From Deinococcaceae bacterium (lineage in GTDB: Bacteria; Deinococcota; Deinococci; Deinococcales; Trueperaceae): a DNA stretch of 17,086 nt. The DNA lies in contig JBDZWC010000063.1 of NCBI GenBank assembly GCA_040256005.1, positions 1 to 17,086 of the forward strand, read 5' to 3'. Positions 3,476-13,765 of this stretch are shown piece by piece (positions within the stretch are counted from its first letter, which is position 1; every line of letters starts with the position of its first letter). The notes below the pieces were generated by a model. The model worked only from the letters and a program-made list of their open reading frames with translations, made no database searches and was not told where the DNA came from. The translations under genes and the position numbers were made by a program.

Positions 3476-3627
3476 ACCGGGCATTCTGCCACCCCGGTCC
3501 CGGCAGGGTCGTCCGGCCCGGGAGACGAGGCACCGCTGCCATGTCGGCCCTGGACCAGCGCCCCCGTCGGGCAGGGGTTAGCTTGCCCTCACGAGCCCGG
3601 CCCTGAGGCCGGCGCTCCTGGAGGACG

Positions 3628-4335
3628 ATGAAGGTAGAGATCTTCTCCGATATCGCCTGCCCCTGGTGCTACATCGGCAAGACGCGCTTCGAGCGGGCCC
3701 TCTCGAACTACGAACACGCCGACGCCGTCGAGGTGGTATGGCGCTCGTTCCAGCTCGATCCCCACGCCCCGACGCGTGACCCGGGAACGAGCGTGGATCA
3801 CCTGGCGCACAAGTACGGGGTCTCCAGGGAGCGAGCCCTGGCGATGATGGACACCGCGACGCGGGTAGCGGCCGAGGAGGGTCTCGAGTTCCACCTGGCC
3901 AGGGCGCTCACGGCGAACACCTTCGACGCTCACCGGGTCGCCCACATCGCGGCCGCGCGCGGCAAGGCACGTGAGGTCATCGCGCGGCTCATGCGGGCGT
4001 ACCAGTCGGAGGGCGCCAACGTGGCCGACCGCGGCACGCTCGTCGCTCTGGCCGCCGAGGCGGGCCTCGACGAGACCGAGGTGCGTGAGGCCCTGGCGTC
4101 CGGCGCGTACGCCGACGCGGTCGAGGCCGACCTCGACAGGGCCGCTGCCTACGGCGTCACGGGCGTACCCTTCTTCGTGTTCGACGAGACGCATGGGGCG
4201 TCGGGGGCGCAGCCGGCCGAGTTCTTCCTGGCCGCCCTGAGGCAGCTGGGACCGCAGGTCGACCAGATCGACTCCCCCGGCGAAAGCGAGCCGAGCGAAC
4301 ACGGGGACGAAGGGCGTGGGGCCGCCACCGGCTGA
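3628..4335 (+). CDS. DsbA-family oxidoreductase / disulfide isomerase, FrnE-like (cytoplasmic)
   Basis: FSDIACPWCYIGK active site, WRSFQLDP, NTFDAHR, GVTGVPFFVF (cis-Pro loop), SGAQP. GGAGGA at 3620-3625, close to the ATG. No signal peptide. Confidence 0.92.
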   Translation: MKVEIFSDIACPWCYIGKTRFERALSNYEHADAVEVVWRSFQLDPHAPTRDPGTSVDHLAHKYGVSRERALAMMDTATRVAAEEGLEFHLARALTANTFDAHRVAHIAAARGKAREVIARLMRAYQSEGANVADRGTLVALAAEAGLDETEVREALASGAYADAVEADLDRAAAYGVTGVPFFVFDETHGASGAQPAEFFLAALRQLGPQVDQIDSPGESEPSEHGDEGRGAATG

Positions 4336-4364
4336 AGCGGTCGACGGAACCGTGGTTTCGCTGC

Positions 4365-4373
4365 TGCTATACT
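4365..4373 (+). promoter_or_regulatory. Extended -10 promoter of the metG leader
   Basis: TGC-TATACT at 4365-4373, a near-consensus extended -10 in a roughly 70% GC background. Predicted TSS about 4380-4382. Confidence 0.75.
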
Positions 4374-4381
4374 CTCGCGAG

Positions 4382-4423
4382 ATGGCGCGCCGCATGATGC
4401 ATCAGGGCCCTGTGTCGGGCTGA
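4382..4423 (+). CDS. Putative metG leader peptide MARRMMHQGPVSG (tandem Met codons)
   Basis: ATG GCG CGC CGC ATG ATG CAT CAG GGC CCT GTG TCG GGC TGA. The ATG is 8 nt after the -10 hexamer, the same geometry as proS. It lies upstream of a methionyl-tRNA synthetase gene. Confidence 0.6.
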   Translation: MARRMMHQGPVSG

Positions 4424-4457
4424 GCAGAGGCTCAGCACCCGCCGGGGCGCCGTGCAT
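4397..4457 (+). promoter_or_regulatory. Putative antiterminator hairpin of the metG leader
   Basis: Core GCTGAGC-agag-GCTCAGC (4419-4436). It extends imperfectly via 4407-4418 pairing with 4439-4448 and ATGCAT 4397-4402 pairing with GTGCAT 4452-4457, capturing the 5' arm of the next hairpin. Confidence 0.5.
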
Positions 4458-4479
4458 ACAGCCGGCGCCCTTGTCGTTT
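4444..4479 (+). terminator. Putative attenuator terminator upstream of metG
   Basis: GGGCGCCG (4445-4452) pairs perfectly with CGGCGCCC (4463-4470), followed by TTGTCGTTT (4471-4479). Confidence 0.55.
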
Positions 4480-4533
4480 GCCTAGGGACCAACCTGCATC
4501 AGACGAGTAGACGGCGCCTGGAGGAGCCAGCCG

Positions 4534-6582
4534 ATGAGCGATGGCACGCCCCGGAACCGCATCGTGCTCGATGAGCCGGAGGAGACCGTAGAGCCCGGTC
4601 CGCCCGTCGATCGGGGCCAGGAACCGCAGACCAGGGCGGAGCCGGCGCCCGAGCCGCAGCTCCAGGACAGAGACGCGTACTACGCGACGACGCCGATCTT
4701 CTACGTCAACGCCGAGCCTCATCTGGGTCACGCGTACACGACCTTGTTGGTGGACGTCGTCACGCGCTTCCACCGCCTCAAGGGCGACGACACGTTCTTC
4801 CTGACGGGCACCGACGAGCACGGCGAGAAGGTCCAGAAGGCCGCGGCCGCGGCGGGCAAGACGCCGGAGGAGTACGTCGACGACGTCTCCTCGCAGTTCC
4901 GCAACACGTGGGACCGGATGGGCGTGCGTTACGACGGCTTCATCCGCACCACCGACGCTCACCACAAGGAAGTGGTGCTGGAGGTACTGCAGAAGGTCTA
5001 CGACGCCGGCGACATCGTCTTCGGCGAGTACTCGGGCCTCTACTGCGTGAGGTGCGAACGGTACTACACGGAGAAGGAGCTCGTGGACGGCAAGTGCCCT
5101 CAACACGAGATCGAGCCCGAGTACCGCACTGAGGCGAACTACTTCTTCACGATGGAGAAGTACCGGGAATGGTGGCGCGAGACCCTCACAGCGAACCCCG
5201 ACCTGATCCGGCCCGAGCGCTACCGCAACGAGGTCTTGGCCATGCTGCGGGAGCCCATCGGCGATCTCTCGATCAGCCGCCCCAGGGACCGCGTGCCGTG
5301 GGGCATACCCCTGCCCTGGGACGACGGGCACGTCGCGTACGTGTGGTTCGACGCGCTCATCAACTACTACTCGGCGCTGGTAGCCCGCGGGACCGTCGAG
5401 CGCTACTGGCCGCACGTGAACCACTTCATCGGCAAGGACATCCTCAAGCCGCACGGGCTCTTCTGGCCGATCATGCTGAAGGCCGCCGGCATCCCGCTCT
5501 ACCAGCATCTCAACGTCCACGGGTACTGGTTGGTGGACGAGCGGAAGATGAGCAAGTCGCTCGGCAACGTGATCAGGCCGCTCGACATGGTGAGGCGCTA
5601 CGGCAACGACGCCTTCCGCTACTTCCTGTTGCGGGACATGACGTTCGGGCTCGACGCCAGCTTCTCCGAGACCGCCATAGCCGAGCGCGTGAACTCGGAC
5701 CTGGCCAACGACCTGGGCAACCTCCTCAACCGCACCCTGGGCATGCTGCAGCGCTACCGGGACGGCGTGGTGCCGGCCGCGGGAGCGATGGAGCCCGAGG
5801 ACGTGGAGCTGAGGAAGGCGTTCACCGACCTGCCGGCCAAGATGACGCGCTACTTCGAGGAGCTGCAGTTCGAGCGGGCGATCGAAGCGGTCATGGAGGC
5901 CGTGCGCAAGGCGAACAAGTACATCACCGACGTCAAGCCATGGGAGCTGGCGCGCGACCAGGCGAGCTCCGAGCGCCTCGATACCGTGCTCAACACTCTG
6001 CTCGAAGCTCTGCGTTGCGCCAGCATCCTGCTCGACCCGGTGATCCCGGCCAAAGCGCACGAGCTTCGGAAGCAGCTGGGCATCCGCAACGCGCCCTTCG
6101 ACCTGTCGAACGCCTCGCAATGGGCGCTCATCCCTGCCGGCACCCGCACCGCGCCGGGCGAGCCGCTGTTCCCGAAGATCGACCTCGATGCCCTCACCAA
6201 GGAGATCGAGGAGTCACACGCCGAGCCGGAGGCGCCCGCGGCGCTCGAGCACAAGGACGAGGTCACGATCGACGACTTCGGCCGCCTGGAGTTCCGCGTC
6301 GTGACCGTAGAGAAGGCCGAGGACCATCCCAACGCGGACAAGCTCCTGGTGCTGACGGTGCGCATGGGACCCGAGACCAGGACCGTCGTCTCCGGCATCA
6401 AAGCGCACTACTCCGCCGACCAGCTCGTGGGGAAGCGACTCGTGCTGGTCACGAACCTCAAGCCGGTGACCCTACGCGGCGTCGAGAGCCAGGGGATGAT
6501 CCTGGCCGCCGAGAACGACGAGGGCGTCCTCAGCCTCGTGACCCTCGACCGTGACCTGGCCGACGGCAGCGAGGTGCGCTGA
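4534..6582 (+). CDS. metG: Methionine--tRNA ligase with C-terminal tRNA-binding (Trbp111-like) domain
   Basis: TTPIFYVNAEPHLGH, LTGTDEHG, Zn knuckle CVRC...CPQH, YVWFDAL, IGKDI, KMSKSLGN, C-terminal HPNADKLL...NLKP..LRGVESQGMILAA. RBS GGAGGAG at 4520-4526. Confidence 0.98.
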   Translation: MSDGTPRNRIVLDEPEETVEPGPPVDRGQEPQTRAEPAPEPQLQDRDAYYATTPIFYVNAEPHLGHAYTTLLVDVVTRFHRLKGDDTFFLTGTDEHGEKVQKAAAAAGKTPEEYVDDVSSQFRNTWDRMGVRYDGFIRTTDAHHKEVVLEVLQKVYDAGDIVFGEYSGLYCVRCERYYTEKELVDGKCPQHEIEPEYRTEANYFFTMEKYREWWRETLTANPDLIRPERYRNEVLAMLREPIGDLSISRPRDRVPWGIPLPWDDGHVAYVWFDALINYYSALVARGTVERYWPHVNHFIGKDILKPHGLFWPIMLKAAGIPLYQHLNVHGYWLVDERKMSKSLGNVIRPLDMVRRYGNDAFRYFLLRDMTFGLDASFSETAIAERVNSDLANDLGNLLNRTLGMLQRYRDGVVPAAGAMEPEDVELRKAFTDLPAKMTRYFEELQFERAIEAVMEAVRKANKYITDVKPWELARDQASSERLDTVLNTLLEALRCASILLDPVIPAKAHELRKQLGIRNAPFDLSNASQWALIPAGTRTAPGEPLFPKIDLDALTKEIEESHAEPEAPAALEHKDEVTIDDFGRLEFRVVTVEKAEDHPNADKLLVLTVRMGPETRTVVSGIKAHYSADQLVGKRLVLVTNLKPVTLRGVESQGMILAAENDEGVLSLVTLDRDLADGSEVR

Positions 6583-6616
6583 AGCAGGGTTCTCACGTGC
6601 GCCAAGCGTATGGCGT

Positions 6617-6658
6617 GGCTGCTGGTGTCGCTTGGTACGGCGCCAGCAGCCTTCGTCT
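6617..6658 (+). terminator. Terminator hairpin downstream of metG (between convergent genes)
   Basis: 14-bp stem GGCTGCTGGTGTCG / CGGCGCCAGCAGCC with two G-U pairs on the + strand, a 7-nt loop and the tail TTCGTCT. Confidence 0.7.
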
Positions 6659-6664
6659 GCTCCT

Positions 6665-9322
6665 TCAGTTCAGCCGCGTCGTCCAGTAGGTGCAGCGGCC
6701 CGTCCAGACAGTGAGGCTCTTGCTCCTGGCCGGGTCCGGAGCGTTGACTTTCACCTCGACGCGGCAGTCCGAGGTGGCCTCCAGGGCGTTGTTGCCCGCC
6801 GCGAAGAGCAGGAACTCGCCCGTGGTGTCGCCGCTCAAGCTCCGGATCGTCAGGTCCGGGAAGCCGACCTCGGAGACGATCAGCTTCCAATCGAAGGTCA
6901 GCGCCTCCGACGTCGGGTTGGCGACCGTGACGGCCGCGCTGTAGCGCAGGGTATCGGGCGCCCCGAAGAGGTTGCAGGCCTCGTCGCGTAGGTCGATCGT
7001 GGCGCCAAGGCCCACCTGAACGGACCCGCAGCCTACCGGCGAACCGTTGAAGACCAGGAGGTCCTGACCGTAGACGCCGAACGTCTCGAACTGTGGATAC
7101 GGGTTGGCGCTGGCGGGCTCGACCGTGATCGTGGCCGTGTCCGAGCCTGCGCTGCCCTCGGTGTCGGTAGTGCGCGACGTCACGCTTCTGGGGCCCTCGG
7201 CGCCGAACGTGACCTGGACCTGGCAGCCGCTGCCGGTGACGACGTCCGGGGCCGCCACGGTCCACGTCATGTTGGCGCACAGCAGCGTGTTCCCGGATTC
7301 GTTGAGGTCGCTGGCCAGCGCCGTCAGCGGGTAGGGGAAGCCGATGTAGGCGTTGCCGGCGGGCTGTAGGTCGACGACCGGGGCGGAGTTGACGACGTCG
7401 AGGCCGAAAGAGATCGCAGCGCTCCGGCCGGAGTGACTGGCCGTGACGGTCAGGGAGTGCAGGCCCGGCGTCGTGAACGTGAGCGGCAGGTTCGGCCCGC
7501 CGAACGCACCGAACTTGATCGTGTAGGGGCCGTCGTAGACCGTCCCGGACAGGTTGGAGACGACCCTCAGGTTGACGCTGCTGGCGACGGAGTGCGTGAC
7601 GGTGAAGAACTGCCCGAGGTTGACGCTCACCCGCAGGTCGGCACGCCTGGGCACGGGGGCGGCGTTGAGTGCGATCGCCGGCGCCTCGGTGCTGCCGGGG
7701 TTGGCCTGCTCCTGGGTCCATGCGGTGCTCCGCCTGACGTCGAACTCGAGCACGTGCATGGAGTCGAAGATCTGCTCCACGTAGTCTGCGGGTATGTAGT
7801 AGTAGCCCCCGTCGCCGGCGCCACAGCCCCACGAGTTCTTGACGACGAAGTAGCCGCCTCCACCGACGTTCACCGGGAACTGCGGCGTGGAGAGCACGGC
7901 GTTGCTGAGGAACCCGACGATCTGCACGACGTGACCGCCGCACTTCTTCGTCGCGCCGCCGGCGCCGTCGCTGCACTCCTCGGCGTAGTCGGAGACGACC
8001 CCGTTCACGGCCCCGTTGAAGCCCTTGTAGACGGGGAACGAGGCGATGATCACGTGCCCTTGCGCCATGTACTGTCGATACCGGTTGAGGTCGAACGACT
8101 GGCCGGACGACCAGATCTGTCGTGAGTTGCTGGCGAGTACGCCGGCTCCCGTGTAAGTCATCGTCGAGAACCCGCAGAACATGACGGGGACGCCGTTGAG
8201 GGCGAAGGTCGTGCAGAAGCGCGGGCTCTGGTGCGCCGTCTCGGAACAGTTCCCCAGGTAGTTGGTGCAGGTGCCGACGTAGTCGGCGGCCGTGCCATCG
8301 GTGCTGCTGGCCTTCCCCGTGGCAGGGTTGTAGAGCCAGAACGTCTCGTCGGGCAGCCGTTGGTTCGCCGCCACGGCCCGCGACAGCGCCAACGGTGCGC
8401 TGTGGCTCTCGTTGTAGTCGTTGCGGTCCCAGACGAACTTCGCCTGGTTCACGTAGAACTGTTCGGAAAGGTCGACCGGGTTGCCGTTCTGAACGCGCTC
8501 GCGGCTCTCGATGGCTCCTATGGAAGCCATGGCCCAGCAGTCGTAGCGGCCAGCCTGGTTCTTGACCGGCGAGAGGAAGTTGCGGAGCGGGAACCAGAAG
8601 TTGGCGACGTAGCCGGAGGGAAGCGCACAGGGCGTGTCGTGGTCCGTACCGGGTACCGCTTGGGACGGGCCGATGGTCTCCTGCCAGAAGGAGGCCGGGT
8701 CGTAGCGCACCCGGTCGAGGTCCTCCACCGTCGCCAACAGGTCGTCGAGGGTCGCCAGTGCGGCCTGGATCTCGTCCACCGTCGCCCCCGCGAGTTCCTC
8801 GGGCGGCGTGGCCTGGGTCCTGAGCTCCTCGGGGAGCAGGTCGTAGCTCATCCGGTAGTCCGCGAGCGCGTTGTCGGCGTCGTTGGCTAGCTGCTCGGTG
8901 AGCACGGCCTGGCTGACGCGGTCCCCTATGCCAAGGAGCGTGACCTCGGTATCGCCCACCTCGATCGTCCCGCCGGGCTCGAAGGCGGTCAGGCCCTCGG
9001 CCGCCTCGAGCAACGCCTGCTGCGCCGGGCTCGGGTCCGGGATGTCCTTCAGTTGCTCGAGGTCGGCGACGAACGCCTCGTCGCGGGCCGCCGCTTGGTC
9101 CGCCTCATCGGTGACGAGAGTGATGACCAGCTCGCCCTCTTTGACGCGGCGGTAGAACTCTTCCGCGCTCAGCATCTGAGCGTCGCCGGGGGCCTCGCCT
9201 TCCCAGGCGGAGTCCGGTGTGAAGACGTCGCCGAAGTTCGGCTGCGGACTGCAGCCGATGACGAGCAGGACCAAGACGAGAACCGCAACCGACAGCCGAA
9301 CAGCACGCCAGCCACTCCGCAT
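6665..9322 (-). CDS. Papain-family (C1A) cysteine peptidase lipoprotein with acidic N-terminal region and C-terminal Ig/PKD-like beta domains
   Basis: Signal peptide MRSGWRAVRLSVAVLVLVLLVIG-C (lipobox). Catalytic motifs PVKNQAGRYDCWAMA (Gln, Cys), DLSEQ, GGHVVQIVG (His) and VVKNSWG (Asn). The tail is Thr/Val/Ser-rich. Start moved from 9361 to ATG 9322 because of an upstream GGAG and a promoter at 9352-9380. Confidence 0.88.
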   Translation of the reverse strand: MRSGWRAVRLSVAVLVLVLLVIGCSPQPNFGDVFTPDSAWEGEAPGDAQMLSAEEFYRRVKEGELVITLVTDEADQAAARDEAFVADLEQLKDIPDPSPAQQALLEAAEGLTAFEPGGTIEVGDTEVTLLGIGDRVSQAVLTEQLANDADNALADYRMSYDLLPEELRTQATPPEELAGATVDEIQAALATLDDLLATVEDLDRVRYDPASFWQETIGPSQAVPGTDHDTPCALPSGYVANFWFPLRNFLSPVKNQAGRYDCWAMASIGAIESRERVQNGNPVDLSEQFYVNQAKFVWDRNDYNESHSAPLALSRAVAANQRLPDETFWLYNPATGKASSTDGTAADYVGTCTNYLGNCSETAHQSPRFCTTFALNGVPVMFCGFSTMTYTGAGVLASNSRQIWSSGQSFDLNRYRQYMAQGHVIIASFPVYKGFNGAVNGVVSDYAEECSDGAGGATKKCGGHVVQIVGFLSNAVLSTPQFPVNVGGGGYFVVKNSWGCGAGDGGYYYIPADYVEQIFDSMHVLEFDVRRSTAWTQEQANPGSTEAPAIALNAAPVPRRADLRVSVNLGQFFTVTHSVASSVNLRVVSNLSGTVYDGPYTIKFGAFGGPNLPLTFTTPGLHSLTVTASHSGRSAAISFGLDVVNSAPVVDLQPAGNAYIGFPYPLTALASDLNESGNTLLCANMTWTVAAPDVVTGSGCQVQVTFGAEGPRSVTSRTTDTEGSAGSDTATITVEPASANPYPQFETFGVYGQDLLVFNGSPVGCGSVQVGLGATIDLRDEACNLFGAPDTLRYSAAVTVANPTSEALTFDWKLIVSEVGFPDLTIRSLSGDTTGEFLLFAAGNNALEATSDCRVEVKVNAPDPARSKSLTVWTGRCTYWTTRLN

Positions 9323-9351
9323 GACCCGTCTCCACTTCCGACTTGGCGCGG

Positions 9352-9383
9352 AATGTAGCACTTCGGCCGACTAGTTTCACTAG
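9352..9383 (-). promoter_or_regulatory. Promoter of the C1 peptidase gene with an inverted repeat over the -35
   Basis: Minus strand GTGAAA (9380-9375), 17 nt, TACATT (9357-9352) with extended TG. Inverted repeat CTAGT-ttc-ACTAG at 9371-9383. Confidence 0.55.
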
Positions 9384-13543: not shown

Positions 13544-13593
13544 CGCCTAGGGACGGCGAGCCGTCCCGCGGGCCATGGCGGCCCCACAACCAG

Positions 13594-13730
13594 ATCCTTC
13601 GGGGCAGGGTGAGATTCCCGACCGGCGGTGTTCGGCTGCGTTCCCAGGCAGCCGTCAGTCCGCGAAGCCTGTCAGGCCCGAACCGGTGCGACTCCGGTAC
13701 CGACGGTGACAGTCCGGATGAGAGAAGGAG
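13594..13730 (+). ncRNA. FMN riboswitch (RFN element)
   Basis: Conserved blocks TCCTTCGGGGCAGGGTGAGATTCCCGACCGGCGGT, AGTCCGCGA, CCGGTGCGACTCCGGTACCGACGGTGACAGTCCGGATGAGAGAAGGA. P1 is TCCTTC (13595-13600) with GAAGGA (13724-13729). Directly upstream of ribD. Confidence 0.97.
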
Positions 13731-13765
13731 GCTTGCGACGGGTCGCCCACGGCGACCCCGGAAAC

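Follow-up and report, generated by a model that had tools for sequence, protein, structure and literature searches.

In Firmicutes, metS and metG are controlled by T-boxes, which respond to the charging of Met-tRNA by binding the tRNA directly, without translation. The DNA analyzed here (“the window”: 17,086 nt, contig JBDZWC010000063.1 of assembly GCA_040256005.1, from a member of the Trueperaceae, Deinococcota) carries a methionyl-tRNA synthetase gene, metG, with no T-box signal in the window, which raises the question of how this gene might be controlled instead. Rfam searches of the window at gathering and E-value thresholds returned no relevant family (one unrelated sRNA appeared at E 0.92), bearing out the original prediction, which found no T-box here and proposed such a search to exclude T-box and SAM elements. 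The T-box (RF00230) was rejected, the sole weak match in the genome lying on another contig, as was SAM-I (RF00162), whose genomic copy likewise lies on another contig; the trp leader family (RF00513) also gave no Rfam match at the window leader. Here, we argue that the metG leader is a ribosome-operated transcription attenuator of the trp/pheST type that senses charged Met-tRNA, a reading to which sequence comparison and folding models lead us to assign a probability of about 85%.

A near-leaderless ORF and two alternative hairpins precede metG

When the window sequence was re-read, all features of the leader, among them the −10 element, the upstream ORF (uORF), its ATG ATG pair, and the GC-rich hairpin, were found at the positions first given for them, on the forward strand. 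The extended −10 element (4365–4373; TG, one base, and the hexamer at 4368–4373) is separated by 8 nt from a near-leaderless ORF of 13 codons (4382–4423), identified from the sequence and its relatives, and transcription is expected to start at approximately 4380–4382. Within the ORF lie candidate Arg-Met-Met sensing codons (4391–4399, with ATG ATG at 4394–4399), singled out by the in-frame ATG excess described below. The antiterminator core (4405–4451; conservation and nascent folding) pairs 4405–4412 with 4443–4451 and closes an inner hairpin (4417–4439; predicted folds) containing the leader stop codon, and a 5′ extension of the antiterminator (4384–4402) is predicted to form only on untranslated RNA. 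The intrinsic terminator (4445–4479; folding and covariation) consists of the stem 4445–4452/4463–4470 and a weak tail at 4471–4479, and is followed by the Shine-Dalgarno site (4520–4526) of metG (4534–6582).

Profile matches identify the regulated gene as encoding a methionyl-tRNA synthetase (MetRS) with a C-terminal tRNA-binding domain (NF008900 at 829.8 bits, cut-off 598; TIGR00398, TIGR00399, and PRK12267 above their cut-offs). The MetRS N-terminus (4534–4680, forward strand) is an acidic, proline-rich extension of approximately 46 residues ahead of the family match, and its length differs widely among Trueperaceae. The ORF upstream of the leader (3628–4335) encodes a DsbA-like thioredoxin and ends 30 nt before the −10 element. 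A generic scan for promoters and terminators returned no sites in 3500–7500 of the window; it misses the leader promoter and terminator because there is no −35 element and the tail is T-poor.

Several other features of the window were recorded. A weak-tailed hairpin follows metG (6595–6630, forward strand), as first remarked; it is located between metG and a convergent gene with a papain-like C1 peptidase domain (6665–9361, reverse strand) and is possibly usable in both directions. The window also carries proS of the archaeal/eukaryotic-like family I (TIGR00408; 263–1711, reverse strand), in whose upstream region the leader ORF scans of the genome picked up none. An FMN riboswitch (RF00050, 96 bits; 13591–13733, forward strand) precedes riboflavin-like ORFs; the longest ORF call at 13628 overlaps it, and the gene therefore probably starts further downstream.

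The leader ORF and its Met codons are conserved across Deinococcota

From approximately 300 genomes searched, 140 metG loci were taken, chosen among those with listed coordinates; after removal of nine duplicates and one locus lacking its 5′ end, 130 genomes from 44 genera and 5 families were left. An automatic rule, which called for a −10-like box, an ATG or GTG 5–11 nt on, and a stop within 5–35 codons with no Met required, found a uORF in 102 of the 130 loci, with an internal Met in 99. Curation by hand added four loci with weaker −10 boxes and removed two Met-less, unrelated-looking ORFs, giving 104 leaders, 103 of which have an internal Met. Thus, a −10 box followed by a near-leaderless, Met-containing ORF precedes metG in 103/130 Deinococcota loci, 36/44 genera, and all five families; because kin are not independent, these counts describe the spread of the leader and were not used for a statistical test.

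Within the 1,348 leader codons, 175 internal ATG triplets are in frame vs 1 and 14 in the other two frames, and ATG makes up 13% of the codons vs 1.7% genome-wide. The internal Met is single in 45 leaders, double in 47, and more numerous in 11. The tandem Met-Met of the original prediction is therefore present in the window and unnecessary for the leader type, a single internal Met sufficing in 45/104. All 104 leaders have, as the selection rule dictates, a TANNNT box 5–11 nt ahead of the start codon, which is TG-extended in 57. In the 50 Trueperaceae leaders of 13 codons, a class picked by length, the start codon is conserved in all 50, Arg4 in 45, Met5 in 43, Met6 in 39, and Pro10 in 48, and translation ends at codon 14, where three different stops occur; named Trueperaceae records have the same 13-codon type. 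The commonest pattern in Deinococcaceae, seen in 13/22 leaders, is a last Met followed by four residues before the stop.

Among 16 metG loci from named Deinococcota records, which include neither D. radiodurans nor D. deserti, all 12 uORFs have an internal Met. A pattern scan for Thermus leaders placed 13 of its 19 matches upstream of metG, and in a further pattern scan all 12 matches fell in Thermus records; neither scan matched a record titled T. thermophilus. Of 15 sequencing runs listed, all in the form of contigs, four were compared with the leader and gave neither transcript starts nor ends; an RNA-labeled run and another whose kind is uncertain have contigs that span part or all of the leader and show neither transcription nor termination.

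The leader is absent from 27 of the 130 loci, including 8/8 of one Trueperaceae genus and 10/11 of one family. In one of the 27 (L102), the leader is intact apart from a 1-nt insertion, which shifts the frame into that of metG and is either an assembly error or a genuine loss of control. Locus L085 has a Thermus-type leader lacking the inner hairpin, with the terminator directly after the stop. In 11/27 Deinococcaceae loci (e.g., L063, L065, L069, and L139), the stretch from the terminator to metG holds a further −10-like box, in agreement with the −53 start site of D. deserti discussed below, and two loci (L066 and L136) seem to retain only this promoter.

The same rule was applied to other genes and phyla as a control. 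An internal Met occurs in 0/21 leaders of pheS (30 loci), in 4/28 leaders of ilvB (30 loci), and in 5/21 uORFs of metG outside Deinococcota (64 loci). In the window's genome, a similar genome-wide rule gave 81 short leaderless ORFs, 13 of them with an internal Met and 4 followed by a terminator (ilvB, pheS, metG, and one transporter). Leaderless short ORFs in this genome also precede pheS, ilvB, cysS, leuC, and aspS (contigs C131, C121, C75, C163, and C180), where cysS, leuC, and aspS are named from protein starts and the pheS and ilvB identities are confirmed. Table S9 for D. deserti names the same targets, pheS, ilvB, cysS, leuC, and aspS, in the part of PMC4007540 considered here. In the window's genome, the pheS leader carries Phe-Phe and a terminator, the ilvB leader also has a terminator, and the leader of the putative non-discriminating aspS is Asn/Asp-rich. 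The pheS (21/30 loci) and ilvB (28/30) leaders are likewise conserved across Deinococcota.

Terminator and antiterminator share one strand and are both conserved

A hairpin with a T-rich tail, as selected by our hairpin-plus-T filter, is found in 94 of the 103 Met-containing leaders, at a median of 20 nt from the stop codon. The window terminator has an energy of −21.8 kcal/mol, and its tail is as weak as first described, with 6 T in 10 vs a median of 7. In an alignment of the 50 Trueperaceae 13-codon leaders (A1), 98.5% of 399 cells in the terminator stem are paired and 5/8 pairs carry two-sided changes (20 such changes); none of 500 shuffles reached any of the measures, and the terminator is the RNAalifold consensus structure.

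For the antiterminator core, 93.3% of 299 cells in A1 are paired, compared with 29–77% in slid controls, and 3/6 pairs have two-sided changes (9 such cells). None of 500 shuffles reached its paired share and covariation score, and 16/500 and 33/500 did so on two stricter measures, such that covariation of the antiterminator among these related kin is modest. In one locus (L129), one substitution has its counterpart in each of three strands, namely the antiterminator arm, the shared strand, and the 3′ arm of the terminator. Terminator and antiterminator exclude each other, since one strand is common to both.

The long alternative hairpin of the original prediction is the minimum-energy fold of the window leader (z = −2.55; 3/200 shuffles as good), and it extends further than first stated, to 4384 and 4470. 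Beyond the core (4405–4412/4443–4451), the predicted fold pairs 4395–4402 with 4452–4460 and 4384–4392 with the terminator 3′ arm (4463–4470). Across A1, this extension averages a predicted 5.25 pairs per sequence for 4384–4392 with the 3′ arm and 4.95 for 4395–4402. The inner hairpin was counted on predicted folds rather than on A1 because MAFFT shifts its register; in these, the first two stop bases are paired in 69/94 stalled folds and GC/AU exchanges track the stop codon type. Altogether, the comparison with relatives that the original prediction had proposed finds conservation of the uORF together with its Met codons and the position of its stop, and conservation with covariation of both stems.

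The untranslated leader is predicted to fold without a terminator

To describe the state of the leader RNA with no ribosome on it, we used equilibrium predictions, in which the terminator probability exceeds 0.5 in only 24/94 leaders and is 0.00 in the window. What disfavors the terminator is the pairing of its 3′ arm to the first codons and of its loop side to the Met codons. By a free-energy measure, no terminator is favored in 71/94 untranslated metG leaders vs 1/17 for pheS and 1/27 for ilvB, and a genome-by-genome comparison places metG toward the no-terminator side in 23/24 genomes. Shuffling the segment from the start codon to the first sensing Met weakened the no-terminator state in 76/93 leaders and 30/35 genera, and in the window 0/40 such shuffles matched its no-terminator value.

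These contrasts have bounds of their own. The pheS control is imperfect, as the model forms an antiterminator in 0/17 pheS leaders even with a stalled ribosome, and the pheS mechanism may therefore differ; at the nascent stage, untranslated ilvB leaders are sequestered in 16/27, which weakens the metG vs ilvB contrast. Since no terminator is predicted on most untranslated metG leaders, a failure to initiate would turn the gene on. This agrees with the claim, made at the outset, that a ribosome failing to initiate also keeps the antiterminator; folding supports it, and it is the most distinctive point of the model. Thus, the default state of the metG leaders is apparently inverted, in these predictions, relative to that of trp.

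Ribosome position is predicted to switch the leader

We next consider a translated leader. With the ribosome at the last Met and a 12-nt footprint, nascent RNA ending before the terminator 3′ arm captures the shared strand in 84/94 leaders. Widening the footprint to 15 nt lowers this to 67/94 (4/15 in Deinococcaceae and 3/12 in Thermaceae loci). In the nascent-fold model, the antiterminator is lost one to three codons beyond the last Met in 75/94. The nascent-fold value at the stop codon is zero by construction and was not used as evidence. When the full leader is folded at equilibrium, the terminator is favored in 93/94 leaders for a ribosome at the stop and in 72/94 for one at the last Met; in the window, its probability is 0.51 and 0.85 for a ribosome at the first and second Met codon, respectively. 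Since equilibrium favors the terminator in the stalled state, antitermination on stalling must be kinetic, and it is probably partial in the model. The claim that a ribosome stalled at Met keeps the antiterminator thus holds kinetically in the model and fails at equilibrium.

Sequence and comparison establish a promoter box, a leader ORF with in-frame Met codons, and a terminator and an antiterminator built on one common strand. On these parts, the proposed mechanism would proceed as follows. RNA polymerase would begin at or just ahead of the leader AUG, and a ribosome would load onto the near-leaderless 5′ end. With ample Met-tRNA, the ribosome would clear the Met codons and, within one to three codons, melt the core and inner hairpin, so that the terminator forms and metG is off. 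With scarce Met-tRNA, it would wait at Met5/Met6, and the core, lying beyond its footprint, would capture the 5′ arm of the terminator ahead of synthesis of the 3′ arm, allowing kinetic read-through into metG that leaves the gene partly on. With no initiation, the longer hairpin would bind the terminator loop and 3′ arm as well, and metG would be fully on.

This scheme allows a further reading, which we hold tentatively and at somewhat under even odds: that the leader is a default-on attenuator for the amino acid that is also needed at initiation. The leaderless AUG would read fMet-tRNA and the internal codons elongator Met-tRNA, the 5′ end would be selected to hold the terminator open without a ribosome, there would be three output levels, and the conserved CGA ahead of AUG would keep the ribosome longer on the sensing codon.

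A CGA-AUG signature and alternative signals

An Arg codon directly precedes Met in 81/103 leaders, Arg being their commonest residue (17.7%), and this Arg is encoded by CGA in 71/84 cases vs 21/152 for Arg at other leader positions and 4.7% of Arg codons genome-wide. In the untranslated fold, the C and G of CGA are often paired and the A is not (0.26), and pairing therefore accounts for only part of the CGA preference; a role in slow decoding is conjecture. The tRNA set of the window's genome, which is incomplete, includes no Arg-UCG tRNA. The signature opens the alternative that the attenuator is the same while its signal is arginine supply or ribosome speed at slow CGA, with the Met codons secondary, a reading in keeping with the antitermination of the trp leader by Arg starvation (as covered in part of PMC4615214). 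We consider it unlikely, since Thermus and several Trueperaceae genera have no Arg and retain Met at the same position, the regulated gene encodes MetRS, and CGC or CGG is the usual codon in the window, which has CGC before its Met, and in its genus.

More doubtful still is the possibility that the leader merely caps metG output or reports initiation through coupling, with no graded response to Met codons and possibly some leakiness in the window's strain. The 72/94 stalled leaders that favor the terminator at equilibrium would suit this reading, as would the size of the modeled contrast between translated and untranslated leaders, which is the biggest we obtained, the weak tail in the window's strain, and the several lineages that have lost or bypass the leader; however, it leaves unexplained both the strict in-frame placement of internal ATG and the fixed distance from Met to antiterminator. 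ThrRS binds the thrS leader directly by an anticodon-mimic type of recognition, and MetRS or another protein might similarly bind this leader RNA, for example through a CAU in the terminator loop. Such a CAU occurs in the window's terminator loop; across the terminator loops examined, however, it is found in just 13/94, on which ground the anticodon-mimic operator was rejected, and loop length and sequence vary freely while the conserved feature is the reading frame, making direct binding the most improbable of the three. We therefore retain the attenuator sensing charged Met-tRNA as our preferred explanation.

DISCUSSION

The E. coli pheM-pheST attenuator is a leader ORF with cognate codons ahead of a gene that, like metG, encodes a controlled synthetase. 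Mycobacterial leaderless poly-Cys ORFs are reportedly proposed to control amino acid genes or synthetases (10.1101/834739). In the E. coli trp leader (RF00513), a leader ORF with cognate codons likewise sets an antiterminator against an intrinsic terminator, as described in the portion of PMC4615214 drawn on here. The metG leader differs from trp and pheST in its Met specificity, its near-leaderless initiation, and the placement of its stop codon inside the antiterminator's inner hairpin. According to the same portion of PMC4615214, the trp terminator forms if the leader is untranslated, whereas the untranslated metG leader is predicted to be antiterminated, the terminator being favored, as a trp-style first hairpin would have it, in only 24/94. 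Because the untranslated leader is not predicted to terminate, we treat the metG leader as a variant of the trp/pheST type.

Leaderless attenuators have also been proposed in Streptomyces lividans (leuL2-leuS, trpL2-trpS, and metL-metNIQ; PMC8079986, in part). As far as that portion goes, they resemble the metG leader in being leaderless short ORFs ahead of synthetase or amino acid genes, and metL is proposed to be Met-dependent; metL differs in serving a transporter operon, in having, according to its authors, no typical intrinsic terminator, in containing Cys codons too, and in belonging to another phylum.

The closest precedent is from the same phylum. Contrary to the original prediction, which knew of no Met-codon attenuator for metG in this lineage, Deide_09379, one of 14 attenuator peptides already predicted in D. 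deserti, is given as the putative leader peptide of the methionine-tRNA ligase (de Groot 2014, PMC4007540, Tables S4, S9, and S10, consulted in part). In the same parts of the paper, the mapped start site of this metG leader coincides with the A of its ATG, 182 nt upstream of metG, and a second, stronger start at −53 (3,317 vs 966 reads), from a second promoter after the leader, bypasses it; section 13 describes −10-only promoters with leaderless starts as typical of the species. Deide_09379 thus resembles the window leader in gene, leaderless ORF, internal Met codons, and proposed attenuation, and its peptide, Met-Arg-Met plus four residues before the stop, matches the commonest Deinococcaceae pattern; by position and peptide pattern, it is a putative homolog. 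Unlike the present work, it stands in the portions of the paper at hand as a one-species table entry without structure, conservation analysis, or functional test. A literature search covering few subscription journals returned nothing that tests a Met attenuator of metG functionally or describes its structure, and metG is not mentioned in the available portions of PMC2965389 and PMC4833913. What is already known, then, is the prediction of a Met-tRNA-ligase leader peptide in one Deinococcus species; what is new is the phylum-wide conservation, the structure, the conserved CGA-AUG, and an apparently inverted default.

If our reading is true, a one-line prediction from 2014 becomes a defined, phylum-wide RNA family missing from Rfam, and the seven-codon Thermus leader with its single internal Met offers a minimal system for attenuation on leaderless mRNA. 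Methionine is an awkward amino acid for attenuation, since its starvation should also block leader initiation, an event that leads to termination in a leader of trp design; the predicted inverted default would solve this problem. The metG leader would thereby show how a whole phylum may control MetRS without a T-box.
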